Shown here: one piece after another, positions 6,989-61,053 of the stretch
How the letters are laid out: each line of letters opens with the position of its first letter
How positions within the stretch are numbered: position 1 is the first letter of the stretch
Source of the DNA: a virus
Lineage: Duplodnaviria > Heunggongvirae > Uroviricota > Caudoviricetes
IMG/VR virus record: IMGVR_UViG_3300037512_000782
Span: 32,001-96,000 of that record
Reading direction: 5' to 3' (one strand)
DNA length: 64,000 nucleotides
Notes under the pieces: generated by a model
Seen by the model: only the letters and a program-made list of their open reading frames with translations
What the model was told of the DNA's origin: nothing
Databases searched by the model: none
Made by a program: the position numbers and the translations under genes

Positions 6989-7007
6989 CTTTTGAATTTT
7001 AAATTAC
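6989..7007 (-). promoter_or_regulatory. Conserved 19-nt element GTAATTTAAAATTCAAAAG (copy 1)
   Basis: Identical copy at 22827-22845; both lie just upstream of a start codon. Confidence 0.5.
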
Positions 7008-9341: not shown

Positions 9342-9370
9342 AATATAGTTTAGGTATGTTTGAATTTCAA
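9342..9370 (-). promoter_or_regulatory. Early/middle sigma70-type promoter TTGAAA-17-TATATT
   Basis: Shares the TTGVAATTCAAA extended -35 element with the other copies. Confidence 0.7.
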
Positions 9371-9376
9371 ATTCAC

Positions 9377-14951: not shown

Positions 14952-15363
14952 TCTTCTTTCCTTCCGGCAGCTTGCCGTTTACCTTGTATTCATACGCTTC
15001 GTTAATCAGCTCTGGGTCGATTTCCTTGTTGCGGATCATCGAGTCCGCTGACGAGGCGGACGTTTCGTAGACGGCCATGACTTGTTCACGGAGCTTGTTC
15101 GTGGCGGCAATCTCGGTAGGGAATGCGCGAAGATACCCGGTGTTGAGCTTGCAGCCGTTGAACGCCTCCATCACCTTTGCGCGAACCTTTGTTGTAAGTC
15201 GGCTGAACTCGACCGTGTTCAGCGCAAGCAGCGACTTGTAGATGGACGGAGTCATGGACAAGGAGTAAATCGCCGCATAGGTGTCATGCGAGGCGATATC
15301 CTCCATCGTCATCTTTCGACCAGCTATGCGGTCTTGAATGAATTTTTCGTGATCAAACGGCAT
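14932..15363 (-). CDS. Probable clamp-loader small subunit (gp62-like)
   Basis: Overlaps the gp44 stop as in T4; plausible size; sequence similarity weak. Confidence 0.5.
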   Translation of the reverse strand: MPFDHEKFIQDRIAGRKMTMEDIASHDTYAAIYSLSMTPSIYKSLLALNTVEFSRLTTKVRAKVMEAFNGCKLNTGYLRAFPTEIAATNKLREQVMAVYETSASSADSMIRNKEIDPELINEAYEYKVNGKLPEGKKNVRRKK

Positions 15364-19735: not shown

Positions 19736-19764
19736 TATGTAGCAATAAACAATTTGAATTGCAA
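19736..19764 (-). promoter_or_regulatory. Early/middle promoter TTGCAA-17-TACATA
   Basis: TTGCAATTCAAA element upstream of gp43. Confidence 0.65.
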
Positions 19765-19770
19765 ATACAA

Positions 19771-25470: not shown

Positions 25471-27651
25471 ATCGCCCTTCGTGACCACTTTTTTGCCGAT
25501 TTCGACGAATTTCGGCTCAAGCTGGTTCCACTCAAGCGGCGTAAACGGAGCATTGACATCGACACACCAGCTGCAGTCAACCTCGATCTGCTGCATGCGA
25601 GCCTCCAGACGGTGCATCATCATGGAAACGACGTATGGTACGCAGCCCCTACCGTCACCAAACTTATACAGCTTGCCGAAGTTCTTCAAGATGGGAAGGT
25701 AGCCGCCACGGATAGCGACGAACGGCCCGTCCAGAACGGCAACGTCATGCGAACCAGTGACAGACACGGTTCCAGCAACACGGCGGTTGTACATTCCGTC
25801 CTTTGTCGAATATTCGCTATACATGCCATAGGTATTAGGGCAGCGCATCCAAGTGCCATCCGGCAAGAAATTCTCATAGCCGAACGGAGCGACAGCACCT
25901 ACATCGCTAGGGACGGCTTCGAGCTTTTGTATGAACGACGGATCATATATCAGCGAAGACGCATGGGCAAGTACAATCCAAGAAGGCGGAACCTTCGGAT
26001 TCACCTTGACAATCTTTTCAGCGACACGAGCGATGTTGAGGAATATCGACATCTGCGGATTGCTCTTCTTGCACATCCTTACTGGCTGGTCACTAGCCAA
26101 GTAGACAAGTTCATCACGACTGGAGGCATACTTCTTGTATGGAACCTTGACGTCGGATCCCTTGCGCCTATAAAGAATGGTAATCACGCACGGCGTCTTA
26201 CTGTGCTGCAAGATCGTGTTATTGTCAAGACGGATTGTCTCGACCGGGCGGATACCCAGAGCCTTGCGAAGCTGGTTCTTCTCGCCTTCTTCCTTGGCGC
26301 GTTCCGCATATACGGTACGCCTACGGTCTTCTGCGCGAAGTTCGTTTTCGTACAAGGCAGCCTTGATGGCGACTTCGAATTCGTCCATCACCGGGGTCTC
26401 CCATACAAACTGCTTGGACGTCTTCTTACGAGTCTTCGCAGCAGCCACTCCAGCCTTGTGACGCTTGTAATAGGCAGCACGACGGTTCGTCTTGTTTAGC
26501 TTGTCCAGATGTTTCTTCTGGAATTCGGAGAGTTCCATCTTCGGATCGACATTGACTCCAGAAGCGACAATGGCGTCAACATCCTCTTGAACCCAGCCCC
26601 ACATCGGATACATCGGCCAGCCCTTGGCTTGTACCTCGGCACAATGGGCATTGTACTCGTCAACCGTCATCACGCAATAGTCCTTCGACTTCTGAATGTG
26701 CATCAGCTTGGGAGGAGCAACGACGCGGCACTTACCGGATATCAAGTTGTCAATCCAGTAATTGCTCTTGCCGAACTTTGTACGGATAGCGAAACGGTTG
26801 TAATACGGCTTGCCTTCACAATAGAAATAACGGCGGTTGATCTGGTCGCATAGCTCATCGAGTTCGGACTTCTTGAACAAATTCCTCGTGCGAGCGCCAA
26901 CCTTGACTTGCTCTGGATGCAGAAGCTTCATGAATATGAACTTCGTTAACGTGCGACGAGAAATCTTCATGTATACGCAAGCCATGCCAGTAGTCAGCAC
27001 GTCTGGAAGAGGCTCCTTCTTTATCAAACGGCTACCTTTCTTTACGGTCTCGTTGATAGAGTCGTTGACATACTGGATGATGTTCTCACGAGTCATCCAC
27101 TTGTATCGCTTGCGGCCAGTCGTACTGTGAATCCAGAACGCGATGTTCGCCTTGCCAGCTCGGCAAGCTGCTCGGAGCTTTCCCGGTGTCGTACCGATGA
27201 ACGTAGCGCTGTCCTTGACATTTAGAGTCTTGGGAAGGAACTTGAAATTCTTGGACGGCACGTAGTTCTTGAGGAACCAGTCGTAATCACGGAAGTAGAC
27301 GAACTTGCCGTAATCGTCGGCTGGCTGTTCCTTGATAATGCCCTTTCTGACCAGTCGCAGATACGTCATCGGACTTACATCCAAGTCAGCGACGATTTCA
27401 GCCGGACGGATCTTTGCGTAAGGGTGCGTAGTGCAAGGAGGTTTCAGACCATAGGCTGAAAGCTTCTTCAGACACGCATCGTAACGGTATTTCTTCTGGC
27501 CTTGATAATTGACTATGTAAGGTATCCCATCAAAGAAACCCATTCCCTTCAAGTCAGAAACCGGACGGTCAAGATACTGCGCAATCTTCAACGGCTGCAC
27601 ATATTCATCTATACCCTTCTGTTTCAACGCACCAAGAGCCATTAGAACCAC
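25450..27651 (-). CDS. Multi-HTH (excisionase/MerR-like) basic protein fused to a degenerate GT-A (GT2-like) domain
   Basis: LNVKDSATFIGTTPGKLRAACRAGK; VLTTGMACVYMKISRRTL...LFKKSELD; C-terminal WIVLAHASSLIYD, DVGAVAPFG, VAVLDGPFVAIRG. Confidence 0.55.
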   Translation of the reverse strand: MVLMALGALKQKGIDEYVQPLKIAQYLDRPVSDLKGMGFFDGIPYIVNYQGQKKYRYDACLKKLSAYGLKPPCTTHPYAKIRPAEIVADLDVSPMTYLRLVRKGIIKEQPADDYGKFVYFRDYDWFLKNYVPSKNFKFLPKTLNVKDSATFIGTTPGKLRAACRAGKANIAFWIHSTTGRKRYKWMTRENIIQYVNDSINETVKKGSRLIKKEPLPDVLTTGMACVYMKISRRTLTKFIFMKLLHPEQVKVGARTRNLFKKSELDELCDQINRRYFYCEGKPYYNRFAIRTKFGKSNYWIDNLISGKCRVVAPPKLMHIQKSKDYCVMTVDEYNAHCAEVQAKGWPMYPMWGWVQEDVDAIVASGVNVDPKMELSEFQKKHLDKLNKTNRRAAYYKRHKAGVAAAKTRKKTSKQFVWETPVMDEFEVAIKAALYENELRAEDRRRTVYAERAKEEGEKNQLRKALGIRPVETIRLDNNTILQHSKTPCVITILYRRKGSDVKVPYKKYASSRDELVYLASDQPVRMCKKSNPQMSIFLNIARVAEKIVKVNPKVPPSWIVLAHASSLIYDPSFIQKLEAVPSDVGAVAPFGYENFLPDGTWMRCPNTYGMYSEYSTKDGMYNRRVAGTVSVTGSHDVAVLDGPFVAIRGGYLPILKNFGKLYKFGDGRGCVPYVVSMMMHRLEARMQQIEVDCSWCVDVNAPFTPLEWNQLEPKFVEIGKKVVTKGDLNPKYI

Positions 27652-28790
27652 ACCTCTACTTTCTGTTTTGCTTGCATCTTCTGTACCAGCTGCAGACGAG
27701 TCTCGCGCTGCTTCTGGCGTTCACGTGCGGCCATGTCGCCGCGTTCGAGAGCGAAGATAATAGCCGCGCCTTCTGGCGGCAAGCTACGACCTTCGATAAA
27801 TTCACTGGAAACGTAGCCGTCGTCATCGACTGGCATCTCGCCAGACAGAACGGCTCCGTTGACATCCTTTTCCTTTATTCCAGACCAGTTGAACCACTTG
27901 TACCCCTTCTTGACGGATTCGATACGAGCAAGTTCACCAGCGTTGTCGTTATCCCAGATGACCGTACAGTTTTCCTTGTGCTCTGCAATCTGCGGATTGT
28001 CCGCAATGACTTCGTCAAAGTGCGAGATGCCGCCGATGGCGATAGCATTGCGAATGAACGTAGAGTCAATCGTTCCTTCCAAGATGTAGAACGGCTTGGT
28101 CACATCGAGGAAGTCGATGTTGTACGCTTGACGCTTGACGCCTTCGAAGTTTCGATAGCGCAGCTTGTTATCGGGGTCTAGCGCACGAGCGTCGAACTGC
28201 GTCCACGCACCGCCGTACTTGTAGAACGGAATGATCAGACGGTTCTTGAACTCGTTGCCGATCGGACGTCCTTGCTCGTTCAGCACGAGTCCGCCCAAGT
28301 CGTCGCGCTTCAAGAACTGGTCGCCTTCCTGGCATACGAACCAAAGGTCATACACTTCTGGACGAATGCGGCGTCCTTGACAGAAAGCCACTGCTTGTTC
28401 CGCGAGAGGATGATGGTCTAGTAGAGAAATGAGTTCGCCATCTTCGAACGGCAAGTCGACTTTCTTCTTGGGCAAGACTTCTTCTCGCTTGTCGTCAGAC
28501 CTATCGCCGTCGAAACCGAACAGAAGCATTCGCTTGTATGCGGCGTCGTCATTCTCCTTCAAGTATTTCATGAAGTGCATGCTCTGTCCGCATTTATAAC
28601 AACGGAACAGCCAACGGTCACGATAGACGTAAGCCTTCTTCTTGTTCGGTCTTGCTGGATCACCACAGAACGGACAAATGAAATTATAGTATTGGGACTT
28701 CTTCTCTAATGCGAAAGAGTTGTCGCCGAATTCAGCTTCCACCGCTTCTTCCAGCGCCGCATCAGGAATATTAGCATAGGAAAAGGACAT
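27642..28790 (-). CDS. gp61: DNA primase (gp61-like)
   Basis: CPFCGD...CYKC zinc finger; RLIIPF; TOPRIM EG.IDS and WDND. Confidence 0.93.
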   Translation of the reverse strand: MSFSYANIPDAALEEAVEAEFGDNSFALEKKSQYYNFICPFCGDPARPNKKKAYVYRDRWLFRCYKCGQSMHFMKYLKENDDAAYKRMLLFGFDGDRSDDKREEVLPKKKVDLPFEDGELISLLDHHPLAEQAVAFCQGRRIRPEVYDLWFVCQEGDQFLKRDDLGGLVLNEQGRPIGNEFKNRLIIPFYKYGGAWTQFDARALDPDNKLRYRNFEGVKRQAYNIDFLDVTKPFYILEGTIDSTFIRNAIAIGGISHFDEVIADNPQIAEHKENCTVIWDNDNAGELARIESVKKGYKWFNWSGIKEKDVNGAVLSGEMPVDDDGYVSSEFIEGRSLPPEGAAIIFALERGDMAARERQKQRETRLQLVQKMQAKQKVEVWF

Positions 28791-28875: not shown

Positions 28876-30051
28876 CTAGAATGGCAGTTCGGTATCGTCG
28901 TCATCGCCTTCTGGCAACTGGTTGGCCATCGCAGCGGCGGTAGCGGCCTGAGCGGCAGCGCGACGTGCGGCGAACGCATTGTTAGCAGCCGGAGCTTCTT
29001 GTGCCGGAGCAGCGCTAGCGCCGCTTACGAGCATTTCGTCTTCGTCTGGTTCCTTTGCGGGGGCTGGATCCATGTCGGCGGAGTTGCCGAGGAAGTCAGC
29101 ACCAGCAACCTTGGTAGTTGCACGGTTGGCGTAATTCGGATTCGGAGCCGCGCCGAAGCTAGCGTTGCTGGCCGTGAAGCCACCTTCGCCATCACCAGCG
29201 GACTGAGCGTTGGATGCCTTCTCAAGGAATTCACGCCACTTAGCGGCAGCAGTTGCTTCGTCCGGAATATCGGCCAAGAACTTTGTTAAGTCATGGCAGT
29301 TATTGAGGATTTCGAGCATTTCTTCCTTCGTGTCAGCGAGCGGAGTCGATTCTGCCACGTAGTCAGAGCCGTCGTAAGAAGTCATGTTCTTTGCAGCATC
29401 CCAGCTGACAATAACACCAAAGTCGACACCCTTGGTCGGAGAGTGAGGAATGAACTTGCGGCGTTCCTTCTTCATCTTGGCCAAAGCGCCCTTGGCTGGG
29501 GCACCATTTGCATTCTGGACTTCAGCTTCGACACTGTCATCGAACGGGGCTCGTAACGTGCGTTCCACAGCGTCGCTGTGACGCCACACGAGAACCTTAC
29601 CATTGTTGGCAGACTTGTTATCGTCTTCACGAACGAGGATGTTCGTATGCCATTCCGGACGAGCAGTCATGCCAGTCCATACCTTGAGGTGCTTGTCACC
29701 CTTTTCGTACTTCTTGGCGAGTTCGTTATAGCGATCCCAAATTGCGCGGCAGATGGGGCAGTCCTGGCCCGGTGTGTTACGGCAGCACTTCACTTCCATG
29801 TGAACGCCATTCAACTTGAGGTGGTGATAAAGAACCTTCACGCTCGGATAGGTCTTGTTCTTGACGCCTTCGATACCTTGCGGCAGAAGACGGATGATTG
29901 CGCTGTAGCTAGGATTGCGCTTGCTCACGCTAGGCTTCCAGCGAGTCGGGTCAACTTTGCCACCAATCGAAGTGGCTTCGTCGAGGTTGGACACGGTGTC
30001 GATGTCGAGATCGAGAAAATCGGCATCAGCTTGGGTATTCTTGGTAGTCAT
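28876..30051 (-). CDS. gp32: Single-stranded DNA-binding protein (gp32-like)
   Basis: D.TRWKP, AIIRLLP, CPIC, NILV.ED...NGKV, acidic tail ending DDDDTELPF. Confidence 0.92.
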   Translation of the reverse strand: MTTKNTQADADFLDLDIDTVSNLDEATSIGGKVDPTRWKPSVSKRNPSYSAIIRLLPQGIEGVKNKTYPSVKVLYHHLKLNGVHMEVKCCRNTPGQDCPICRAIWDRYNELAKKYEKGDKHLKVWTGMTARPEWHTNILVREDDNKSANNGKVLVWRHSDAVERTLRAPFDDSVEAEVQNANGAPAKGALAKMKKERRKFIPHSPTKGVDFGVIVSWDAAKNMTSYDGSDYVAESTPLADTKEEMLEILNNCHDLTKFLADIPDEATAAAKWREFLEKASNAQSAGDGEGGFTASNASFGAAPNPNYANRATTKVAGADFLGNSADMDPAPAKEPDEDEMLVSGASAAPAQEAPAANNAFAARRAAAQAATAAAMANQLPEGDDDDTELPF

Positions 30052-30150: not shown

Positions 30151-30179
30151 ATAGTAGAAAGAATAAATTTGAATTGCAA
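30151..30179 (-). promoter_or_regulatory. Early/middle promoter TTGCAA-17-TACTAT
   Basis: TTGCAATTCAAA element; predicted start just 5' of the pseudoknot. Confidence 0.75.
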
Positions 30180-30184
30180 ATCGG

Positions 30185-31418: not shown

Positions 31419-32921
31419 TTAAAACTGGCTGTAAATACTCTGCATGCTCGCTACGGCAGCTTGCTGCTTGTCGTTCAACTTCTGGCCTCTAGGGGCACCG
31501 CCACCACGATTTCCGCCGCCAGTACCCACACGGACATTCTGATTCATGCCACCAGTCGCCTCGGCAGCGATCTGGGCTTGGGTAAGGGCATCGGTGTAAG
31601 CGGCGATATCGTCCGTAGTTGCGTCATACCAGCGCATCGTATTGTAGTCGTACTTCGTGTAGAACATGACTTCGTTTTCGCCGAAGCGGTTCTTCTTCAC
31701 GAAGTTGGCGTACATATTCTGCTTCTTCAAGAGGTCGTCACGAGTAATCGTAATCATGATGTCGGCGGTTTCAGCAAAGCCAGCTGAACCAGACACCGAT
31801 TCGAGACCAGCATCGAGCCTAGAGTAGCCAGAACGGTTGAACTGGACTGCGGAAATGCCGACCATGTTGCGGTCGATGCAAAGTTCGCGGATCTGTTCGG
31901 CCTTCTCTTGGCCATCGAGGTACATGCTTTCCATCGTGCGGTGAGTACGGTTCGGCTTCATGATGCCGATGTAGTCCACCACGAGGACATCCGGATTCTT
32001 CTTGTAGATGGAGTAGAACTGGTCGACACGAGCTTCGATTTCTGCCGGAGTCGTAGTCGTCTTCATACGGATAACCTTCAAGCGGCCAAGGCGCTCGACA
32101 CCAGGTATCTTCGTATTCTCGATAAGCTTACGACATTCGTCGACAGAGAGGTCGGCCACTTCGTACTGCGGCACACCAGTAAGGTTGGCGGCAAGACGAC
32201 GCCATACGTATTCTTCGGAAAGTTCCAGAGAAATGTAAAGCACGTCGTAGCCGTAACGTATAAAGTTACAAGCATCGGAACCCATCACAAGCGACTTACC
32301 GACGTTGGGCTGGCCAACGAACAAGGTCATCGTCTTGCGAGGATATCCACCAGAGTTGGGGTCTGTCTTGACTTGAGCCGTGTACTGATTGATAGGGCCG
32401 ATTGCGGAACGAATCGGATGTGACATTTCCTTCAATCTGCGCTGTGCTTCCTCGATGTCTTCGACGAGGTCGAGACCCAATCCCATGTGGAGACTGAAGT
32501 TCAGCCTATCACGGAGAACTGGAAGCAAGTCACGGATTTTCTCGGTATCATTGTCGTACAATGCAGTCGCGGCATCGCGCAACGCATTTTCCGTCGCCTT
32601 CTCTTGATAGAAGTTTTCAAGCAAAGTAATGACGTAGTCCTGTTTCATGTACGGAACTTCGGCATTACAGATAGCAAGCAGCTTCTGTCGAGCAGTTTCG
32701 CTCAATCCGCTGTTGGCGAGACCGACGATAAGCTCTTGCGCTTGCGGCCTACGGTTATACTTGCGGATGAACTTTCGGATGATACCAATAAGGGTTTTGT
32801 TCGTAGCATCGGAATAGAGCTTGTCATCAAGGAACGACACCATCTTAGGAGCTATGTCGAAGTCCATAAGATAAGTGCGGAGAACAAGGTCTTCCCTAGT
32901 CAAATCATATACAGCAGCCAT
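31419..32921 (-). CDS. gp41: Replicative helicase (gp41/DnaB-like)
   Basis: GQPNVGKS, YISLEL, VVDYIGIM, SAVQFNRSG, KNRFG. Confidence 0.94.
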   Translation of the reverse strand: MAAVYDLTREDLVLRTYLMDFDIAPKMVSFLDDKLYSDATNKTLIGIIRKFIRKYNRRPQAQELIVGLANSGLSETARQKLLAICNAEVPYMKQDYVITLLENFYQEKATENALRDAATALYDNDTEKIRDLLPVLRDRLNFSLHMGLGLDLVEDIEEAQRRLKEMSHPIRSAIGPINQYTAQVKTDPNSGGYPRKTMTLFVGQPNVGKSLVMGSDACNFIRYGYDVLYISLELSEEYVWRRLAANLTGVPQYEVADLSVDECRKLIENTKIPGVERLGRLKVIRMKTTTTPAEIEARVDQFYSIYKKNPDVLVVDYIGIMKPNRTHRTMESMYLDGQEKAEQIRELCIDRNMVGISAVQFNRSGYSRLDAGLESVSGSAGFAETADIMITITRDDLLKKQNMYANFVKKNRFGENEVMFYTKYDYNTMRWYDATTDDIAAYTDALTQAQIAAEATGGMNQNVRVGTGGGNRGGGAPRGQKLNDKQQAAVASMQSIYSQF

Positions 32922-32972: not shown

Positions 32973-34238
32973 TTAGTCTTCGCCGTTGACTCCCTTGCGC
33001 AAGCTTTCAGCCTTCGCAGCATCGGCGAGATTCAAGTCTTCGATTGCTTCGTCGATTTCGGAATCTTCGACTTCTGGAGCATCGTTGTCTTCGGCAGAAC
33101 CGAGTGAAGGCGGACGGAACTTGTATTCCTTCTTCACGTACTCGTTGATTTCTTCGAGGATAGTGCCGATGTATTCCTTGCGGTCAACCTTGCTGGCAAG
33201 GCAGACGATCCAGTCCTTCGGATCCTTCTTCTTGTCCATGATGACGTAGCAAGTCTTGCGAGTCTTCTGGCCGTTACCGTCCTTCGGCATCTTCTCAACG
33301 AGTTCTGGATACTTGGAAGCAGAGAACTCTTCGATGAGGCCAGCGTCGAGAGCGACGTTGTGCAAGCCGTAGAACTTGTTCAGACCAGTGTTGTAGTCAA
33401 GATAGAGCATGGCGGTCTTCCTGGGCTTCACCATACGGCTCTTGAACACGGTGGCTTCAAGGATGATACCCTTGACTTCCTTGGTGTTGCGGTCAGGCAC
33501 GTCGAGAGTCTTGCGCATCGTCAAGATGACGGAAGCGAAGTACTTGGCACCTTCACCGTTAGCGATGCGCTTCGGATCACCGTAGCCATCGGTAGCCATG
33601 TAAATGTGGTTGGTAATGAACATCGGAATGCCGAGGTTTCCGCAGCGGTTCGTGATGTTCGTGAACATGGCCTTGACCACCTTGGCCTTGGTCATGTCTT
33701 GCTTGAGTTCGCCCTTCGTGGCGTCGTTCGTAGTCTTCTTGGTAGACATACCGCCGAGAGAGTCGAGAACGAACGCAACCTTACGTTCATTCTTCATCTT
33801 CTTGCCCTTATCGGCTTCGAGAGTGTCAAGAAGTTCAGCAATAGACACAAACACGTCCTCGGCAGTCGTATGCTCTTGGACGAGCTTGAACTGGTTCGGA
33901 TTGAAGCCGTTTTCTTCTATTAACTGGTCTTCATTGGTTTCGTGTTCGGTGTCGTAGTAGAAAATGTAGTAGCCCAAGTCCATCAAAGGCTTGATGAAGT
34001 TGTTCTTCATCATGTAGGACTTACCGGAGCCTTGTTCACCAGCGGCCATGAAGAATCTGTTGAGATGGAAGCCGCCGAAGATGTCGCCACATAGTAAGGC
34101 GTTCAGCATGTAGGAACCGGAATCGGCGTAGCCGTATTCTGGATGTTTGACGTTTGCGTCCGCATAACGGTCGCCCGTCTTGATTTTCTGGAAGAAGGAG
34201 AAATCGGGTTCAGCTGGGTTAGTTTTCTTTGTTGCCAT
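32973..34238 (-). CDS. uvsX: RecA-like recombinase UvsX
   Basis: DSGSYMLNALL, GEQGSGKS, YDTE, LDSLG, TNH.Y, KSR. Confidence 0.93.
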   Translation of the reverse strand: MATKKTNPAEPDFSFFQKIKTGDRYADANVKHPEYGYADSGSYMLNALLCGDIFGGFHLNRFFMAAGEQGSGKSYMMKNNFIKPLMDLGYYIFYYDTEHETNEDQLIEENGFNPNQFKLVQEHTTAEDVFVSIAELLDTLEADKGKKMKNERKVAFVLDSLGGMSTKKTTNDATKGELKQDMTKAKVVKAMFTNITNRCGNLGIPMFITNHIYMATDGYGDPKRIANGEGAKYFASVILTMRKTLDVPDRNTKEVKGIILEATVFKSRMVKPRKTAMLYLDYNTGLNKFYGLHNVALDAGLIEEFSASKYPELVEKMPKDGNGQKTRKTCYVIMDKKKDPKDWIVCLASKVDRKEYIGTILEEINEYVKKEYKFRPPSLGSAEDNDAPEVEDSEIDEAIEDLNLADAAKAESLRKGVNGED

Positions 34239-34306: not shown

Positions 34307-34335
34307 AATTTAGTTCAAATCAATTTGAATTCCAA
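34307..34335 (-). promoter_or_regulatory. Early/middle promoter TTGGAA-17-TAAATT
   Basis: TTGGAATTCAAA element upstream of uvsX. Confidence 0.65.
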
Positions 34336-34341
34336 ACTGGC

Positions 34342-53419: not shown

Positions 53420-54397
53420 ATGGATAAGAATGTACTCTTGAACTGCCTTTCAACTGGAAAGGCCCTAATCGAATCGAACGCAGCCTTCTTTGCGAAGAAG
53501 ACGGACAAGAAGCGATTCGAACAAGGTAAGAAGCTGACAAGACAGTTCGTCGGTGTATCACGCGCACCAGATGGCAATGCCGTTATCGAATTCCAGGTTC
53601 CTTCTCGTAGCGAACCCGGTGTCATGCGTCATTGCTTTATCGACGTGATACCCAAAGATACAAACTTGTTCACACTAGCCCAGACTACGAAGAGGCTCGC
53701 TGACCGCGTGAATGTCTTGAAGAACGCTGACGTGCGTTGCTTCTGTTCGTGTCCAGACTTCAACTGGAACGGCATGAAGTACATGATGAAGCACAAGTAC
53801 GACAGCATGTCTTCAGACCACCACGCCGACAACGATCACGACGACCACGGTGAAGATATTGCACCTAAAGTAAGAAAGCCAGCACTTTGTTCGCACTTGG
53901 TCGCTGCACTCGGCGGTATCTTGACCAACGCCTCCGTAATCATGAAGCAAGTTCGTACGGCTCCGCCAATCGAAGAGCAGCCGCAAGAAGAACCGCAGCC
54001 TACCGAAGAACATCCGATCGTAGGTAAGGCCGACTCCGAAGAACAATCGAACAACGTAGCCGAAGAACACGAACAAGCTCGTAACGAAGCTAACGAAATG
54101 TTCACTACTGACGGCGGCACCATCAAGACCGAGGAAACACAGAAGGCGCTCGACGCGCTTGCAGACAACATCGAGCCGACCGCCGAAGGCGAGACTGACG
54201 ATGAAGTTCCAGAAGTTCTCGACGACCCAGGACTAGGTCTTGTAGGAAAAGCCGACTCCGAAGAAAAAGCAAACAAACTCGTCGACTATGACGAGCTTGC
54301 AGCAAATCCTATGTTCGATGTCCCAGTAGATGACGAGGAAGAAGAAATCAGTGTCGATGACGAAGATGTCATCACCGAACCAATGAAACTCCCTTAA
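53420..54397 (+). CDS. SWIM-type zinc-finger protein with acidic tail
   Basis: VRCFCSCPDF...LCSHLVAAL (CxC...CxH). Confidence 0.7.
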   Translation: MDKNVLLNCLSTGKALIESNAAFFAKKTDKKRFEQGKKLTRQFVGVSRAPDGNAVIEFQVPSRSEPGVMRHCFIDVIPKDTNLFTLAQTTKRLADRVNVLKNADVRCFCSCPDFNWNGMKYMMKHKYDSMSSDHHADNDHDDHGEDIAPKVRKPALCSHLVAALGGILTNASVIMKQVRTAPPIEEQPQEEPQPTEEHPIVGKADSEEQSNNVAEEHEQARNEANEMFTTDGGTIKTEETQKALDALADNIEPTAEGETDDEVPEVLDDPGLGLVGKADSEEKANKLVDYDELAANPMFDVPVDDEEEEISVDDEDVITEPMKLP

Positions 54398-54894
54398 TTA
54401 GACCAGATAGGTTCAAGCGTCGCGACAGAAATCTGATCGGACGTGTTATTCCATTTGTAGTTGTTGCCGACAACGATCATCAGTATATCGTGCAACACGG
54501 ATCTCACCAGACCGTTCTTGACCGTCTGTAAAACAGTGTTGATGTACATCTTGTCACACTCTTCACGACTGTAGTCATTGAACCCGGTCTCCTCGTACAA
54601 CGCGGCAAGCGCAAGAGTTACGCACGGATCCAACTTTATTCCGATCAGTCCCAGCAGATAGATAACAAACTTCGGCAGAGGATGCTTCGCGGCAAAGCCT
54701 TTCTTGATGGTAAGGCGACTGCGCACACTGGTAAAATCCATGCTCGTCATTTCCTCAATGTCATCATCGACGTCGCCGTTCAAGATAACAATGTCGGCTA
54801 CAAGTTTGTCCTTCAACTTGCACACGCCATCTTTTTCGACGGCGGCATGCTTGTACTTGTCTGGAATAATAATGGTACGGATATACTGTGACAT
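54394..54894 (-). CDS. Hypothetical protein (weak DUF1353-like pattern)
   Basis: LTIKKGF...ALYE...SREECDKMY. Confidence 0.55.
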   Translation of the reverse strand: MSQYIRTIIIPDKYKHAAVEKDGVCKLKDKLVADIVILNGDVDDDIEEMTSMDFTSVRSRLTIKKGFAAKHPLPKFVIYLLGLIGIKLDPCVTLALAALYEETGFNDYSREECDKMYINTVLQTVKNGLVRSVLHDILMIVVGNNYKWNNTSDQISVATLEPIWSN

Positions 54895-54938: not shown

Positions 54939-56573
54939 TTAGGCGGCGTTGAAGTCAACTGGCTGGCACTGACGGCTTTCCATTTCGTCGATGAACAACT
55001 GATCCGGACGTTCCGGCAAGGTAGCCTCGTACTCGTATTCGTACTCGATATCGGTGTGTGTAGGAATGTCTTGGTTGAGAAGTTCCTCATCCATGATGCA
55101 GCGAACATGATCGGCATACTGCTCCGGCACGATAATGGAGTCATGCACCGTGCAGAAATGGCAACCGACTTCCTCGATGATACGAGGGCAGACTTGATCG
55201 AACACGAAGCTGCTCTCGATTTTCTGCATTTCATAAGCCAACGCGGCATGGCAATGTTCCTTCAGCGACCACATGCAGTTGTAGAGGTTGGGGAAGTGTT
55301 CACGCCAGCAACGCTGAACCGCACCACGGATCGGCTCACGCTTGGTATCGAAGTACAGCGGAGAGAACAAGAAGGAAAGCAATCCCTTCTTTGCTTCGTC
55401 ACGAGTCAGCTGCCTACCGATATCTTCGTCGGCACTGCATTCGCTCTGGAAGAATTCGTATATCTTGCCTTCCGCCACCAAGTTACGGTAACGGTCGAGC
55501 TCGGCTTCCATGCGGCCAAGGACGAGATCCTTGCGGCCAGCATTCCAGATCGGCTTGAAACGGAGGAACGTATCGCGGTTCTCGGTGAGGTCATTGCGAT
55601 AGAAGTCGATATAACGACGGAACACGGCAATGATGAAGGCCGCTTGAGAAGACTTGATATCGACTTCGGCAACCTTGTCTCCATCGCAGCGCAATGCGGC
55701 ATGACGGATTTCCTTCTTCATGTTCGTCACGTTCGTATGGATACGGCCATACTTGTCGTGCTTCACATAAAGGTCTCCGTCTTCGTCAAGGAGGCCGTTG
55801 AAGCGCTCGATCTTGCAACGTTCAAGGTCGGCATTGTACGGAGCCATCTTGCCGTTCTCGACCATTTCATTCAAGGTAGCATCAGCCACATTCGCATCAA
55901 TGGAGAAGTGGCTCAGCTCGTCATAGCAAATCGCCACTACTGGATCTTCCATAGATACGCGCTTGCGTTCCTCGAAGGACTTCTGGATACGCTTCAAGAC
56001 TACCGGAGAAGTGATCGTGTACTTGGACATCGTGCCGCGCACAACGACTTCGGTATTCTTGAGCTTCTTGTCGAGTCTGGTCTGCAGATAGGTAGCGTAG
56101 CTGTTCTGGTACGGAGCGCAAAGCCAGAAAGCCTTGCACTTTCCCTTACGGCTGGAGTCACCCTTGATGTAGCTCTGAGAACGGCCAATGAAGCCATTCT
56201 CGACCAAGGTGTTGATGGCAGTGATGTAGCCGTCACCGAGGAACTTGTGGAGCAAGGCAGCAGAAAGGTGGGTCTTCCAATACTTACGAGGAATCTTGGG
56301 CTGCACAACCATATTGGTCATGAGGTCACTACGGAGATGGCTCGTAACCATGTAAAGGACGAGTGCCATCGTATCAAGTAAAGTCTTGTTTACAGGAGAA
56401 TGTCCGTTCTTTGTCGTAAAATCGTGACAAAATGACACAAAACCCTTGTAGAGCATAGACGGCAGTTCAATCTTGAACTCAGTCTTAGGCTTACGACGCT
56501 TGGTCTTCTTGGTTCGGTTAAGGGTTTCGTCAATCACGTCCATAAAGTTAACAAAACTTCCCAAGTCCGGCAA
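54939..56573 (-). CDS. PolA / T7-RNAP superfamily polymerase-domain protein (TV-Pol-like), putative replication protein
   Basis: DKYGRIHT, motif A EVDIKSSQ, motif B RDEAKKGLLSFLF, YEMQKIES, motif C TVHDSII; no exonuclease domain; start either TTG 56573 or ATG 56543. Confidence 0.75.
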   Translation of the reverse strand: MPDLGSFVNFMDVIDETLNRTKKTKRRKPKTEFKIELPSMLYKGFVSFCHDFTTKNGHSPVNKTLLDTMALVLYMVTSHLRSDLMTNMVVQPKIPRKYWKTHLSAALLHKFLGDGYITAINTLVENGFIGRSQSYIKGDSSRKGKCKAFWLCAPYQNSYATYLQTRLDKKLKNTEVVVRGTMSKYTITSPVVLKRIQKSFEERKRVSMEDPVVAICYDELSHFSIDANVADATLNEMVENGKMAPYNADLERCKIERFNGLLDEDGDLYVKHDKYGRIHTNVTNMKKEIRHAALRCDGDKVAEVDIKSSQAAFIIAVFRRYIDFYRNDLTENRDTFLRFKPIWNAGRKDLVLGRMEAELDRYRNLVAEGKIYEFFQSECSADEDIGRQLTRDEAKKGLLSFLFSPLYFDTKREPIRGAVQRCWREHFPNLYNCMWSLKEHCHAALAYEMQKIESSFVFDQVCPRIIEEVGCHFCTVHDSIIVPEQYADHVRCIMDEELLNQDIPTHTDIEYEYEYEATLPERPDQLFIDEMESRQCQPVDFNAA

Positions 56574-56633
56574 GTCTCCATTGCAGGATATTGGAGTAAA
56601 TCAGACCAGCGGTGCTAGTCCGGTTTACTGCCG
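56568..56633 (-). promoter_or_regulatory. Structured RNA leader (three-way junction) upstream of the TV-Pol-like gene
   Basis: CGGCAG/UUGCCG closing stem enclosing the GUAAACCGGACUAGC/GCUGGUCUGAUUUAC and CUCCA/UGGAG hairpins. Confidence 0.55.
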
Positions 56634-56661
56634 AGTTTATCGTTCAGTTATACGGAGTACA

Positions 56662-56690
56662 AAGGTAGACTAAACGAGTTTGAATTTCAA
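56662..56690 (-). promoter_or_regulatory. Early/middle promoter TTGAAA-17-TACCTT
   Basis: TTGAAATTCAAA element. Confidence 0.65.
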
Positions 56691-56736
56691 GTTCGACCAT
56701 CAGTCCTTGTCTCACCCGGCACCACCGACCATGTTA

Positions 56737-56883
56737 ATGTTTCGAAATCAATAAGTCTGAGTATATGGTTTAGTTTACATAATATACTCAGAAAAGGGGT
56801 CGAAAGTAAGGTATAAAAGTTCAACGAAGCAGCCAGAGTGCTGCAGTCTTGCCCTACGGACGCCCCATATAGATGTTTCGAAA
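56737..56883. other. Candidate replication origin / operator region
   Basis: 11-bp perfect inverted repeat TCTGAGTATAT (56756-56766) / ATATACTCAGA (56782-56792); direct repeat ATGTTTCGAAA (56737-56747, 56873-56883); lies between divergent promoters. Confidence 0.4.
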
Positions 56884-56902
56884 AATGACTATTTAGGCTA
56901 AT

Positions 56903-56931
56903 TTGCAATTCAAATTGATAATGGCTATCTT
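56903..56931 (+). promoter_or_regulatory. Early/middle promoter TTGCAA-17-TATCTT
   Basis: TTGCAATTCAAA element; ATG 8 nt after the -10 box (nearly leaderless). Confidence 0.7.
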
Positions 56932-56939
56932 GTTCCATT

Positions 56940-57443
56940 ATGGCTTACACATCTTGTATAACAATCGAGTTACTATCAATGTTCCGCTGGAAGGAGACTG
57001 GGTGGAAGGCACCCGTGTCCTTGGTATCGCCGGATGTGACCATCCGTCTTGCAGCGCACGAGTCTTGCTCCAATAACAACTGGAAGCTTGACTTGGACGT
57101 GGAAAGTGTCGAGAACCATAATGAATGGGCCGACCCGTCCTTGCAAGACAAGATTGTTGCCGCCGTCATGAAGCGTTGCCAGCACGACGTCAAGGTCGTC
57201 CGCATCTTTGGCGCTTCGCTTCGCAATACCTACATCAACGGTATGAAGCGTTCGAACATGTTCTTTCCGACCGACTTCCGTGTGAATTTCAACTACAAGT
57301 ACAGATTCATCGTCGCGTTGGAAGGCGAGACCTACGAAAAGCTTGACGGTATTTACTTGGTTCCGTCCTACATCCCGGCACCGCGAGATGGCTTTGACGC
57401 CGAGCAGTTCTACAAGTTGTGCTGTTACGAGAGATTTGAATAA
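56940..57443 (+). CDS. Hypothetical protein
   Basis: 167 aa, TAATG-coupled to uvsW. Confidence 0.7.
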   Translation: MAYTSCITIELLSMFRWKETGWKAPVSLVSPDVTIRLAAHESCSNNNWKLDLDVESVENHNEWADPSLQDKIVAAVMKRCQHDVKVVRIFGASLRNTYINGMKRSNMFFPTDFRVNFNYKYRFIVALEGETYEKLDGIYLVPSYIPAPRDGFDAEQFYKLCCYERFE

Positions 57444-59218
57444 TGGCCCAGCAACAGACAAATTTCGCACCGTCCGTCGTGCGCTTCGAGTACAATGACG
57501 CTATCCAGTGTCATGTAGCCATCGAATCCGAGGACAAGCGACTTGCCTACATGATTAACAGCTTCATATCGGCTGCCATGACGTTCTATGACAAGACGAA
57601 GTCGAAGACGTGGCAAGTGTCCGAAGGATTCAAGAGCGCATTCGTTACATTTTACGACCGTAAGTTCCAGTTACTACCGATCGGCTTAATACCGAGAGTC
57701 AGCCGTCTTGTCCATGGCCGTTTCGGTTCGAAGATCGAACTGACCAAGGATATCAACGACTTGTTCATTCCGCCTCGCGGAAAGCTGACTAGGAACGACG
57801 TCGTCGGTTTCGCCAATACGCTGAACTTGCACAATCGTCTAACTGGCGAACCGATCATTCCGTACGAACATCAGTACAAGCTGGCCGAGCGAGCCATCAA
57901 CGGACGCCGCATTTCGTTACTAGCTTGCACGAGCGCTGGCAAGTCTCTTGCCATGTGCATTATCGCGAGGTACTTAATATCTCGCGAGAACAAGAAGCTC
58001 TTGATCGTCGTGCCGTCCACCAACTTGGTCGAGCAGCTGTTCTCCGACTTCTACAACGACTATGGCTGGGAAGACGCTCGCCGTTATTGCACGTTGATTT
58101 ACGCGGACTCCGATGACAAGTTGTCGAAATCACAGAAGGAGAACTTGAAGAAGAACAACATTGGCGAAGAAGTCATGCTGAAGCAGATTACCATTTCGAC
58201 GTGGCAGTCGCTCCAGAACAAGCCAGATTCCTTCTTCGAGTGCTTCACTGCGGTCATGGTCGACGAAGCCCACTCGACTCGCGGCGTCAAGTTACGAGAT
58301 ATCTTGGCCAAGTGCGTGAATGCCATCGACTTCAAGATTGGCGTGTCCGGTACTTTGCCGAGTGACGGTATCGACGCTGGCTACATCGAAAGTCAGCTTG
58401 GCCGCAAGGAAGACATCATCAGATTGAAGGAACTCGTCGCACAAGGTATCCTTACCCCAGTGACTGTCCGTTCTATCTTGATTCCGTATCCTCCGCAGTT
58501 ACGAAAGATGATCTGCCGCCAGACCTACGATGACGAAGTCGCATTCTGCAGCTCCAACACGTCGCGCCAGGATATTGTCAAGCTGTTGATCGACGCTGGC
58601 AAGATTACGACCGAGCAGAACACGGTTATCTTGTTCAAGAATATCGATCCGCTTGAAATGATGCACGAGTTTCTTGCAGCGAACTATCCGCAGTTCACTT
58701 ACCATATCATCAAGGGTGACGTGTCCGTGGATGAACGCGAGGATATTCGTAAGTCGATCGAGTATTCGACTGGCCACATCATCTTGGCAACTTACGGCTG
58801 CATGAAGCAAGGCGTCAACATCAAGCTTCTGCACAACTTAATATTTGCCAACCCGGCGAAGTCTGTGTACATGGTCGTCCAGTCGATCGGTCGTATTGTG
58901 CGTCCGCACAAGGACAAGAAGATGGCCTATGTGTATGACTTGGTCGACGATGCGTCGTACGAGTATATCGGACGTTCCGGATATCCTATCGTGAAGACGA
59001 ACTACATGGTCAAGCACTACGATATCCGTCGTTCCTACTATGACGACGACGAAATTCCGGTCGAGGAGATCAACTTCACTGGAATTTACGAAGCCAAGAT
59101 TGACGAAAATGTTATAGCCGAGCGCAAGAAGAAGGCTGCCGACAAGGCGAAGGCCAAGGCCGAGAAGGCCGTCAGCAAGAGCAAGGCTAAAGTATTCAAG
59201 AACAAATTTTTCTTATAA
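57443..59218 (+). CDS. uvsW: SF2 DNA helicase UvsW
   Basis: PYEHQ, CTSAGKS, IVVPST.LV.Q, STWQSL, VDEAH, SGT, GVNI..LHN, QSIGR. Confidence 0.94.
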   Translation: MAQQQTNFAPSVVRFEYNDAIQCHVAIESEDKRLAYMINSFISAAMTFYDKTKSKTWQVSEGFKSAFVTFYDRKFQLLPIGLIPRVSRLVHGRFGSKIELTKDINDLFIPPRGKLTRNDVVGFANTLNLHNRLTGEPIIPYEHQYKLAERAINGRRISLLACTSAGKSLAMCIIARYLISRENKKLLIVVPSTNLVEQLFSDFYNDYGWEDARRYCTLIYADSDDKLSKSQKENLKKNNIGEEVMLKQITISTWQSLQNKPDSFFECFTAVMVDEAHSTRGVKLRDILAKCVNAIDFKIGVSGTLPSDGIDAGYIESQLGRKEDIIRLKELVAQGILTPVTVRSILIPYPPQLRKMICRQTYDDEVAFCSSNTSRQDIVKLLIDAGKITTEQNTVILFKNIDPLEMMHEFLAANYPQFTYHIIKGDVSVDEREDIRKSIEYSTGHIILATYGCMKQGVNIKLLHNLIFANPAKSVYMVVQSIGRIVRPHKDKKMAYVYDLVDDASYEYIGRSGYPIVKTNYMVKHYDIRRSYYDDDEIPVEEINFTGIYEAKIDENVIAERKKKAADKAKAKAEKAVSKSKAKVFKNKFFL

Positions 59219-59227
59219 GGTTAATTT

Positions 59228-59689
59228 ATGCGAGGTACAATAACTTATTGGGATGGCATTCGTCGGTTCTTCGCCGAGCGCGGGTTTGACCGGGCCAAGT
59301 TGGACAGAAACTGCTTTGACGGTTTCAAGATTGTCTCTGCCGATATTCACGAGCCGCTTGAAGGCTATGCGGTTTTCCGTGAATCTGCACCGGATATCTT
59401 TGCGCAGTTCGACCGTCTCGACTGTTCTGTAGACCGTCCGACGGATTACTACCGCGACTTCTTTATCGGTGAATGCAAGCGTCCGCGTGAGGCGCAGCAG
59501 TTGGTCGATGCTCTTTATGAAGTTGCCGCGATGGATCCTCCAGAACCAGTATATGAATCCGCTGATGTCGTTCATACGGTTAGTTTGGAAGTCTTGAACG
59601 ATATTGCTGCCATGAGTGGCAGTACACCAGCAATTAAAGGCGAACCGTTTGTCAATACCGATGGTGAGCTCGTTGTAGAACTGGCTTAG
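59228..59689 (+). CDS. Hypothetical protein
   Basis: 153 aa in operon, AAGG RBS. Confidence 0.7.
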   Translation: MRGTITYWDGIRRFFAERGFDRAKLDRNCFDGFKIVSADIHEPLEGYAVFRESAPDIFAQFDRLDCSVDRPTDYYRDFFIGECKRPREAQQLVDALYEVAAMDPPEPVYESADVVHTVSLEVLNDIAAMSGSTPAIKGEPFVNTDGELVVELA

Positions 59690-59697
59690 GAGTTATT

Positions 59698-61053
59698 ATG
59701 GAATTCAAGTCAAAGCCTCTCAAGAGTTATCCGTTCAAGAACAATCGCCTTCTCGTTATCGACTGGGCATCGCTTTCCTATCATCAGCTTTGGTCAATGA
59801 AGACGAAGTCCAGCAAGAAGCAGCTGGGCAGTGTGTTGCCGGAAGACGACGAAATGATCGTCTGGCGAGCAAAGATGTTCAACCGCATGCTGGACTACAT
59901 CAGACTTTTCAATCCGATGGACATTATTCTCTGCCTTGAAGGCAAGAAGGCATGGCGCAAGCAAGTCGTCAAGGACTATTACACAAAGTATGCCGAAGTC
60001 TATTACGATAGCATCGGCTACTATGTCTGCAGCGACAATTATGCCTACCGTGTGACGAAATGCGGCGATACTTACGGCGTGGCCAAGATTTCTCCGAAGG
60101 AACGCCCGGTGTTCGAATCGTTGAAGCATCGTCCGCTCGGAAAGTTGCCTCAGCAGACCCAAGACATGCTTTGGGGAATCAAGACGCTCTCTGGAACTCC
60201 GGTGCTTCCGTCGTACAAGGGAAAGCGTGGCGCGTCTCCTTGGGAATTCTCGGTCGACAAGAAGTATTGGCAAGCCTACAAGGATGAATACGCAATGGAA
60301 CTTGCTCCGTTCTTCCGCGCAAAGGCTGTCAAGTGCGACATTGCCGAAGGCGACGACATGATCTATGCCGCCGTCAAGAAGTACAGCGGCGACTACGACG
60401 ATGTCATCGTCATCACGCGAGACTCCGATATGTCCCAGATCGACGTGAAGAACTTGAAGATTTTCAACCACACGTCCGAGAATTTCGTCGAATGTCTCTA
60501 TCCGCAGAAGTACCTTGACGCCAAGGTTCTATCTGGAGATACCTCTGACAATATCCGTGGCATGGCCTATGTCGATGCGAAGACTGGCGAGTACAAGCCG
60601 ACCAAGGCTAACGCCGTCTCCGAAAAGGAAGCCGTGACCTTGCTTGAAAACTGCCCGAACATCTATGCTGTAGCCCAGGCTAATGGCTGGGGCGAACAGT
60701 ACATGAGGAACCGTACATTGATCGACTTGTCGATGGTTCCTCGTAACGTGTCCGAGGCTATCGACGTCGTGATGGATAAGCCAGCCCCAGAACTGGCTAT
60801 CGACTGGAACAAGACCAATGAATGGGGCATCCCAGAAAGCAAGGTGGACTACTATCGCACTCTGCAGCAGTTCGGTTTCTTCGCCGTACTCAAGCGCGAA
60901 AACGCCAACCCAGAATCGTTCAAGGGCGAACAGCTCGTCCAGAAGGAAGCCGACATGAACCAGAAGCTGCTGGATGATATGTCTACTGGTCTGGATTTCG
61001 AGTCGGTTGAAGGAATCTTCGACGGCCCGGCGTTTGACATCGGAATGCTTTAA
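59698..61053 (+). CDS. rnh: T4-type RNase H / 5'-3' flap exonuclease
   Basis: LLVID, WRK, YKGKR, AEGDD, TRDSDMSQ, GDTSDNI, RNRTLIDL. Confidence 0.9.
   Translation: MEFKSKPLKSYPFKNNRLLVIDWASLSYHQLWSMKTKSSKKQLGSVLPEDDEMIVWRAKMFNRMLDYIRLFNPMDIILCLEGKKAWRKQVVKDYYTKYAEVYYDSIGYYVCSDNYAYRVTKCGDTYGVAKISPKERPVFESLKHRPLGKLPQQTQDMLWGIKTLSGTPVLPSYKGKRGASPWEFSVDKKYWQAYKDEYAMELAPFFRAKAVKCDIAEGDDMIYAAVKKYSGDYDDVIVITRDSDMSQIDVKNLKIFNHTSENFVECLYPQKYLDAKVLSGDTSDNIRGMAYVDAKTGEYKPTKANAVSEKEAVTLLENCPNIYAVAQANGWGEQYMRNRTLIDLSMVPRNVSEAIDVVMDKPAPELAIDWNKTNEWGIPESKVDYYRTLQQFGFFAVLKRENANPESFKGEQLVQKEADMNQKLLDDMSTGLDFESVEGIFDGPAFDIGML

Follow-up and report, generated by a model that had tools for sequence, protein, structure and literature searches.

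The 64,000-nt window analysed here, positions 32001-96000 of the 348,092-bp IMG/VR record IMGVR_UViG_3300037512_000782 (a rumen-type phage, estimated completeness 91%), encodes a predicted second polymerase beside a T4-type replisome. The 544-aa product is, judging from its predicted structure, a stand-alone polymerase fold of superfamily A. There is, in our estimate, an even chance that it is a TV-Pol-like, exonuclease-less polymerase that obtains site specificity from a winged helix and serves as the origin-specific initiating polymerase of the phage. This initiator reading draws on the catalytic residues, a DNA-binding head, a motif shared with replication genes, a unique pair of upstream sites around AT-rich DNA, the position of the gene where GC skew and coding strands diverge, its conserved divergence from a helicase and RNase H operon, and relatives carried by small self-replicating elements. 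It also draws on the de novo priming known for CcPol-MP and on a homologue in phage ICP1 that lies roughly near a mapped origin. From these features we infer catalysis, de novo initiation, recognition of the paired sites by the winged helix, and origin function.

A preliminary description, made from the letters alone, had placed the open reading frame (ORF) exactly where we found it, on the minus strand with 544 aa (Table 1), and the gene is single-copy across the 348-kb genome. In the close homologues P0003 and P0004 the protein starts at an in-frame ATG that corresponds to 56543 (residue M11) here, so that the start is uncertain by 10 codons. An AlphaFold2 model built from a 34-sequence alignment reached a predicted local distance difference test score (pLDDT) of 82 and a predicted template modeling score (pTM) of 0.68. 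Foldseek had been proposed as a check of the polymerase fold and, run against the PDB, returned family-A DNA polymerases or mitochondrial RNA polymerases for all of the top 50 matches. VIA-align likewise ranked superfamily A throughout positions 1-21, with yeast mitochondrial RNA polymerase in the top row (Z 11.9) and Klenow (Z 11.8, root-mean-square deviation 3.8 over 248 residues), T7 DNA polymerase (11.3), Pol theta (11.2), apPol (10.7), Pol nu (9.8), T7 RNA polymerase (9.3) and N4 RNAPII (8.0) also matched.

The polymerase fold starts at about residue 200. No exonuclease or proofreading domain was found in the protein, in line with the preliminary description, and only a winged-helix-like region precedes the core. 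Residues ~36-200 matched winged-helix DNA-binding domains only, at modest Z values of 4.5-5.3 in VIA (the ORC/Cdc6 winged-helix domain, TFIIE, LexA, MarR, Fur, IclR, MCM-C and the ScoMcrA SBD), which suggests that the predicted N-terminal domain is winged-helix-like. In the DSSP assignment, the recognition helix spans residues 116-125 and the wing strands residues 129-131 and 148-151; this is the segment that had been quoted as winged-helix-like from the sequence, and here too the agreement carries the modest Z. Y116 and L123 of this domain are conserved in 93 and 99 of 120 members. The fingers (348-469) consist of helices only by DSSP, with no hairpin resembling a specificity loop.

Motif conservation was counted over 120 diverse family members, whose mean column identity is ~12%. 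All four motifs previously read as intact (GR, A, B and C) are present and conserved in this set. Eleven residues are invariant (120/120), namely R277, D305, Q310, Y372, K395, P428, Q450, E453, T475, H477 and D478, and invariance of catalytic residues at such low mean identity argues for selection on catalysis. In the AlphaFold2 model, D305 closes the strand 299-305 and a helix runs from 307, R391-F403 lie in one helix, and H477 and D478 sit in the turn of the hairpin 474-476/479-483. From this register, with the strand ending at the Asp and the helix beginning at D+2, Q310 would occupy the steric-gate position.

We compared the diagnostic motif variants with reference sequences from annotated records. 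The first residue of the T/DxxGR motif is Asp in T7 RNA polymerase, N4 RNAPII and the window protein, and Thr in Pol I. Motif A reads DGSCSG in T7 RNA polymerase, DATSSG in N4 RNAPII, DIKSSQ in the window protein, DYSQIE in E. coli Pol I and DASGLE in T7 DNA polymerase; motif C reads HDS, HDC and HDS in the first three and HDE in both DNA polymerases. By these sequence comparisons, the scaffold motifs (DxxGR, DxxSS and HDS) are of RNA polymerase type. The sugar-selecting positions fit neither class: the D+5 residue is Gly in RNA polymerases, the steric-gate Glu in DNA polymerases (E710/E480) and the Glu-sized Gln in the window protein, and the position of Tyr639/Tyr766 is held by Phe403 (F in 87 and Y in 30 of the 120). 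As Q310 and F403 match neither class, the preference for ribonucleotides or deoxyribonucleotides is not predictable from the sequence.

Profile searches located the protein less precisely. Pfam gave no match at E up to 10, the DNA_pol_A (PF00476) and RNA_pol (PF00940) hidden Markov models included, PHROGs gave nothing significant (best E 0.15-0.2), and no polymerase was matched in the PDB by phmmer or by our A1 profile. The sole PDB match of the broad A2 profile was N4 RNAPII, a weak one (E 0.079) in which motifs B and C were collinear. Aligned with hhalign to the single sequences of E. coli Pol I, T7 RNA polymerase and N4 RNAPII, which are weak targets, the family profile yielded probabilities of ~1%; because such targets are too weak, fold evidence and motif register were relied on. 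A 'DIKSS' match in Pol I from hhalign was discarded as spurious, as it fell in the wrong part of the protein. Across the genome, a search with PF00476, the Pfam PolA family, was empty while its controls were positive, and a multisubunit RNA polymerase beta subunit was not found with a working control.

The global minimum of the cumulative GC skew lies at genome position 88,000, inside the polymerase gene and 0.57 kb from its 5' end. To the left of this minimum, the runs of genes are on the minus strand, and a run of 26 plus-strand genes begins at 88,940. We examined four genomes in this respect: G000 (348 kb), G001 (422 kb, complete, with terminal repeats), G002 (355 kb) and G003 (260 kb). The placement recurs in 4/4, at polymerase identities down to 33%, and the minimum is 3.2 kb, 0.55 kb and 0.15 kb from the 5' end of the gene in G001, G002 and G003, respectively, with the same strand divergence.

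The 366-bp intergenic region upstream of the gene (56574-56939) contains two direct sites of ~19 bp, 136 bp apart, with the pattern TTTCGAAACAT..A.ATGG when read toward the gene. The exact 17-mer pattern occurs at these two places only in the 348 kb. Both sites are kept in phages with 72-77% polymerase identity, and the spacer between them varies in sequence and length. Lineages at 35-48% polymerase identity have pairs of their own, in gene orientation and 96-186 bp apart, that share the core [G/T][A/T]AAACAT followed by 5-6 A/T and then (G/A)G; analogous pairs were found in loci L051, L053, L056, L058, L062, L064 and L076 and in G002 and G003, where the two sites are the only copies per genome (355 and 260 kb). 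In G002 they are 822 bp apart. In a pattern-free repeat search of 120 upstream regions and 331 control segments, a repeat score of at least 13 was reached by 13% of the former and 2.7% of the latter. We also considered whether the paired site stands for a promoter class of wider use and rejected this, as exact copies occur only here and matches with 2 mismatches are at the level of the reversed-pattern control.

Between the two sites lies the most AT-rich stretch of the intergenic region; equally AT-rich spots number 6 in 64 kb (0.08% of 60-nt windows). It contains an 11-bp perfect inverted repeat, I3 (56756-56766 / 56782-56792), which is not conserved in relatives. The adjacent intergenic region had been tied to the polymerase in the preliminary description, and the unique conserved pair, the AT-rich stretch and the skew minimum strengthen that link. 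Other repeats were seen upstream of more distant members: in L102 and L103, ~380-400 nt upstream of the gene, perfect 37-38-nt direct repeats with a spacing of 66 nt contain GAACATGAC or GAGCATGAC, and in L016 a 96-nt tandem precedes the gene. Upstream repeats may be a wider trait of the family.

The preliminary description had also placed the gene under a replication-class promoter, and this was substantially right. The 16-nt motif TTTGCAATTCAAATTG, made of TTTG and the near-palindrome CAATT-CA-AATTG, has 5 copies in the window against 0.86 expected, a number reached in 0/100 shuffles. It is found upstream of gp43, gp32, uvsX and the helicase operon divergent from the polymerase gene, the last copy (56902..56917, plus strand) being invariant in four phages. 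The motif resembles a promoter or operator of a replication regulon, and its function would compare with that of T4 middle promoters. Ahead of the polymerase gene stands a variant with 4 mismatches (56676-56691, minus strand), and the orthologous site in L048 has 1 mismatch. The TTG of the variant stands 20 nt before a TACCTTTG (TAnnTTTG) box at 56660-56667 on the minus strand, at -94 from the TTG start, a spacing that fits what we take to be the Bacteroidota -33/-7 promoter consensus. A sigma-70 promoter scan stayed at shuffle level, with a consensus that suits the wrong type of host.

A further motif upstream of the gene, GATAAACT, is conserved as ATAAACTC in relatives and has 10 copies in the window against ~2 expected. 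Six of the ten are 3-60 nt before a same-strand ORF start, including that of a 2151-aa ORF, and the motif also stands ahead of ORFs without a replication role; it probably marks a further class of phage promoters, perhaps late ones. In the leader from GATAAACT to the start (56574-56633, minus strand), the blocks ACCGGACTAGCACCGCTGGTC and CCTGCAATGGAGA are conserved across four phages. A short upstream ORF, of a length not conserved in relatives, starts at an out-of-frame ATG in the leader and extends to 6 nt beyond the ATG at 56543.

An exhaustive search gathered 2,385 representative clusters (50% identity) at E up to 0.001, and a word-indexed search gathered 92 clusters, none of them annotated. 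The family as a whole is unannotated, and its carriers range from phages, both jumbo and small, to plasmids and integrative elements. In jumbo phages (contigs of 150-640 kb), the gene keeps a fixed syntenic position with PolB alongside. Short members of ~400 aa reside in chromosomal islands of Bacteroidota and Planctomycetota and, once, on a plasmid of Hymenobacter. Their neighbors are tyrosine integrases and ParB-methylase fusions, and one member has a superfamily 2 (SF2) helicase directly after it. In another group of huge phages, the gene for a short member precedes, on the same strand, that for a conserved ~1,200-1,300-aa protein without a Pfam match (L095:8990-12868, L011:9233-13147, L096:9844-13422 and 8 more loci). 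The rumen metagenome-assembled contigs L006 and L007, binned as Fibrobacter sp. and Prevotella sp., hold 99%-identical copies of the locus; they are almost certainly mis-binned phage contigs, so the bin names give no host. The 406-aa protein P0068, which matches 30% of the polymerase at 55% identity, also carries Peptidase_C10 domains (PF01640, PF13734); its source is a 1.9-kb contig that may be a chimeric assembly or a fusion.

Among known systems, the architecture resembles that of TV-Pol, the predicted primase-polymerase of viruses and mobile elements (Iyer, Abhiman and Aravind 2008, PMC2579912). Shared with it are a minimal thumb, an Arg beta-hairpin, a palm with two Asp residues, RxxxK fingers and the lack of a nuclease domain; the presence, in some members only, of an additional N-terminal domain; and a host genome that keeps its normal replicative polymerase. 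Both groups also occur in viruses and in integrase- or helicase-linked elements of Bacteroidetes and Planctomycetes, TV-Pols in Proteobacteria as well (PMC2579912). Unlike TV-Pol, with its fused or adjacent D5-like helicase, the phage polymerase has a divergently encoded UvsW-like SF2 helicase as its partner. Its place as a fixed core gene of T4-like jumbo phages, at the skew minimum and beside paired cis sites, is likewise not among the features described for TV-Pols. The TV-PolN domain was called 'all-helical' (PMC2579912), whereas the N-terminal domain modeled here combines helices with a beta wing. A search of Microcystis phage Ma-LMM01 with the A1 and A2 profiles, which had no positive control, gave no match. 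The previous assignment to the TV-Pol type thus stands as to architecture, taxonomic spread and mobile-element context, and falls short of a direct sequence link to published TV-Pol.

CcPol-MP of SCCmec, a primase that starts DNA synthesis de novo with a preference for the vicinity of its own gene (Bebel et al. 2020, PMC7581432), is the sole biochemically tested enzyme of this general kind. It too has an A-family polymerase domain without working exonucleases and belongs to a mobile replicon (PMC7581432, PMC10061031). CcPol keeps the sugar-gate Glu and Phe (equivalents of E710 and F762) and an exonuclease remnant (PMC7581432), where the phage protein has Q310, L399 and F403. It also lacks the TV-Pol N-terminal domain and needs MP as a separate OB-fold subunit, in contrast to the fused winged helix and the HDS motif found here. 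De novo initiation requires a module that holds and orients the template, the N-terminal domain in T7 RNA polymerase and MP in CcPol-MP (Rice 2023, PMC10061031), and this requirement gives the winged helix of the phage polymerase a plausible mechanistic role.

The divPolA2 proteins (~430 aa; AUR84708 of Vibrio phage 1.063.O), proposed to be repair DNA polymerases or RNA polymerases (Yutin et al. 2024, PMC11348598), are likewise diverged PolA proteins without an exonuclease domain, with an N-terminal globular domain and a co-encoded regular PolB, and have mitochondrial RNA polymerase (6ymv, Z ~12) among their top structural matches. We rejected identity with this group, as the comparison with AUR84708 gave an hhalign probability of 5.5% and a BLASTP E of 0.11, and the motif variants differ: divPolA2 has the DNA polymerase-type DFKAFE (Glu at D+5) and FDE, versus DIKSSQ and HDS. 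The neighborhoods of divPolA2 are variable, whereas the present gene is syntenically fixed. With N4 RNAPII (gp15/gp16) and T7 RNA polymerase, the protein shares the Asp of DxxGR and HD[S/C] in motif C, and with N4 also D-x-x-S-S. Unlike these enzymes, it has no Pfam RNA_pol match, Gln in place of Gly at D+5 and Phe in place of Tyr639; unlike T7 RNA polymerase, it has no visible specificity loop or T7-type N-terminal domain, and there are only two candidate sites per genome. The layout of the paired sites resembles that of the T7 primary origin, where two tandem cognate promoters (phi1.1A/B) come right after the RNA polymerase gene 1.

A distant homologue is ORF100 of phage ICP1 (HQ641347 53113-54780, 555 aa), found with an hhalign probability of 95% and an E of 2.6e-8; the match covers the Arg hairpin and all three of motifs A, B and C. 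ORF100 has DFKSIH in motif A and HDA in motif C, versus DIKSSQ and HDS. The gene lies 1.3 kb past a strand switch, with a local skew minimum at 48.5-51.5 kb, and an early bidirectional theta origin of ICP1 has been mapped by sequencing 'near 60 kb' in the coordinates of another isolate (PMC7145576). A position of ORF100 within ~5-10 kb of that peak speaks for the initiator reading, but the co-location is retained as approximate only.

In the proposed mechanism, the polymerase would be expressed with the replication regulon and would bind just upstream of its own gene, at the two ~19-bp sites that are unique in the genome, and the AT-rich DNA between them would serve as a melting zone. It would then make the first strand de novo, as RNA or DNA, and the gp43 holoenzyme with gp41/gp61 would take over for bidirectional replication. 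In a variant of this idea that we consider rather unlikely, the protein could represent a new minimal class of sequence-specific, de novo single-subunit polymerase whose paired sites (an AAACAT block, 5-6 A/T and GG) are cognate promoters that form the replication origin, as the tandem phi1.1A/B promoters do in T7; the winged helix would then replace both the N-terminal domain and the specificity loop of T7 RNA polymerase. The preliminary description had already proposed a dedicated origin initiator. This is partly supported overall, by the fold, the catalytic residues, the winged-helix-like head, gp43 and gp61 alongside and the paired sites.

Several observations weigh against an initiator. 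T4-type origins run on R-loops of the host RNA polymerase and a gp61-type primase is already present, so that an initiator polymerase is not strictly required. Phage GC skew tracks the direction of transcription, and the minimum may simply restate the strand switch; moreover, the four genomes compared for skew are syntenic relatives and represent one conserved arrangement, not independent events. The paired site was not detected in G001 and many other loci, including those of short members. The matches of the modeled winged helix are modest (Z ~5), its pairing with the sites is conjectural, and no MP-like OB-fold partner is evident from the model of the 166-aa neighbor. In ICP1, ORF100 is ~5-10 kb from the mapped origin peak, an approximate distance, and the global skew minimum is at 88 kb. 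Finally, we found no activity assay for any family member in the literature searched.

The evidence can also be read in other ways. A minimal single-subunit RNA polymerase, with the paired sites as its two cognate promoters and messenger or regulatory RNA as its product, for example from its own and downstream genes, seems unlikely to us. It would account for the RNA polymerase-type variants in DxxGR, motif A (similar to DATSSG of N4) and motif C (HDS), for N4 RNAPII as the only PDB profile match (E 0.079) and yeast mitochondrial RNA polymerase at the top of VIA (Z 11.9), and for the sites themselves, which are direct, point toward the gene and, as in T7-class promoters, consist of a specific block, 5-6 A/T and GG; Yutin et al. 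raised the same idea for the analogous divPolA2 (PMC11348598). However, the residues that select ribose are not those of RNA polymerases (invariant Gln at D+5, Phe in 87/120 at the Tyr639 equivalent), Pfam RNA_pol is unmatched at E 10 and DSSP shows no hairpin like a specificity loop. Two promoters per 348 kb would also make an odd regulon, and host-type promoter elements already stand ahead of the gene. We regard as similarly improbable a DNA polymerase with auxiliary duties like those of Pol I or Pol theta, in repair, the filling of gaps or lesion bypass, that works with FEN/RNase H, UvsW, gp46/47 and UvsX, its position at the strand switch reflecting operon organization. Neither the fusion to a winged helix nor a conserved pair of sites unique in the genome is expected of such an enzyme. 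The phage protein has no clamp-binding or exonuclease module, its gene is divergent from the helicase/RNase H operon and outside it, and members on small integrase-bearing elements better fit replication initiation. Nevertheless, the neighbors are recombination and repair genes, Pol theta (Z 11.2) and Pol nu (Z 9.8) also work without proofreading, Gln310 and Phe403 are compatible with the use of dNTPs, and repair is among the two roles proposed for divPolA2 (PMC11348598).

Very unlikely, in our view, is a gene captured from a TV-Pol element whose product now works mainly at the divergent promoters, where it binds DNA as a regulator or a partition-like factor, or solely for its own propagation, with a polymerase chemistry irrelevant to phage replication. 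Distant members do occur in integrative elements and on a plasmid, and the paired sites are just upstream of each divergent promoter, as operators would be. Yet the catalytic residues are invariant over 120 sequences at ~12% identity, and the syntenic position is fixed down to 26% identity with no integrase near the phage loci.

The surroundings of the gene are listed in Table 1. Homologues of a full T4 replisome, including the gp43 and gp61 named in the preliminary description, were found within the window. The divergent arrangement of the polymerase gene and a small ORF, UvsW-like helicase and RNase H recurs in 37 loci with polymerase identities of 26-99%, and no integrase was found near the polymerase gene in phage loci. 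In L001:4974-5714, of the group with 45-48% identity, a gene similar to Endonuclease V lies between the polymerase gene and the divergent helicase operon. The model of the downstream 166-aa protein (pLDDT 80, pTM 0.79) has a six-strand sheet and four helices; compared with the PDB, it matched no solved fold (best Z 3.9) and no OB-fold. The stop end of this ORF overlaps by 4 nt with the end of a convergent SWIM-zinc-finger-like gene (53420-54397).

Table 1 Features of the polymerase locus and of the replication genes around it, in window positions
Feature	Position	Strand	Details
Polymerase gene	54939..56573	-	Intact 544-codon ORF from TTG; alternative ATG at 56543
N-terminal domain, ~residues 30-200	55974..56486	-	Predicted winged-helix core; VIA matches, DSSP
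Thumb-palm-fingers core, ~residues 200-503	55065..55976	-	Predicted; VIA matches to Klenow and RNA polymerases
DxxGR motif, D273-K-Y-G-R277	55743..55757	-	Beta-hairpin; R277 120/120, D273 111/120
Motif A, D305-I-K-S-S-Q310	55644..55661	-	Catalytic Asp D305 120/120; D+5 steric-gate-position Q310 120/120
Motif B/O-helix, R391-x3-K395-x7-F403	55365..55403	-	K395 120/120, R391 104/120; position 403: F 87, Y 30
Motif C, T475-V-H-D478-S479	55137..55151	-	Beta-turn-beta; T, H, D 120/120; S479 107/120
Proximal site TTTCGAAACATTAACATGG	56729..56747	-	Direct repeat D1; conserved in L048-L050
Distal site TTTCGAAACATCTATATGG	56865..56883	-	Same orientation as proximal copy; conserved in L048-L050
AT-rich stretch	56731..56795		25% GC in a 60-nt window; lies between the two sites; lowest GC in the intergenic region
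Polymerase promoter-like region	56660..56691	-	CTTGAAATTCAAACTC then TACCTTTG; conserved block in alignment A3 of relatives
GATAAACT motif	56634..56641	-	Upstream of polymerase gene; conserved as ATAAACTC in relatives
TTTGCAATTCAAATTG copies	19750-19765(-), 30165-30180(-), 34321-34336(-), 56902-56917(+), 9359-9374(+)		Window scan
GATAAACT copies	3599, 13845, 16398, 20506, 30923, 40080, 42566, 49694, 51808, 56634		Window scan
Divergent operon	56940..61053	+	167-aa ORF, UvsW-like SF2 helicase, 153-aa ORF, flap endonuclease (FEN)/RNase H (Pfam, PHROG)
Downstream 166-aa ORF	54394..54894	-	Co-directional; 11 loci; only relatives with at least 45% polymerase identity
gp43-like PolB	16755-19712		T4-type replisome; Pfam/PHROG
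Clamp loader	15353-16396		T4-type replisome; Pfam/PHROG
gp61-like primase	27642-28790		T4-type replisome; Pfam/PHROG
gp32	28876-30051		T4-type replisome
gp41	31419-32921		T4-type replisome
UvsX	32973-34238		T4-type replisome
gp47	7004-8119		T4-type replisome
gp46	62749-end		T4-type replisome
UvsW-like helicase	57443-59218		T4-type replisome
RNase H/FEN	59698-61053		T4-type replisome

Compact A-family polymerases are already known from TV-Pol (2008), CcPol-MP (2020) and divPolA2 (2024). In the literature searched, we found no description of a winged-helix-fused, Gln-gated variant fixed at the skew minimum of T4-like jumbo phages, nor of the genome-unique paired sites of this polymerase. To our knowledge, origin firing in large T4-like phages is known for T4 only, where it depends on host RNA polymerase R-loops. 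A site-specific phage initiator with its own pair of recognition sites would be a different and compact solution that consists of one gene and ~200 bp of DNA. If the variant with cognate promoters at the origin is true, such R-loops would give way, in a T4-like jumbo phage, to priming by an RNA polymerase-like primase of its own. The presence of a homologue in ICP1, a genetically tractable cholera phage with a mapped origin, makes the hypothesis directly testable. Finally, an active site that combines an RNA polymerase-type scaffold with an invariant Gln gate bears on the origin of DNA synthesis, RNA synthesis and priming in the Pol I/T7 RNA polymerase superfamily.

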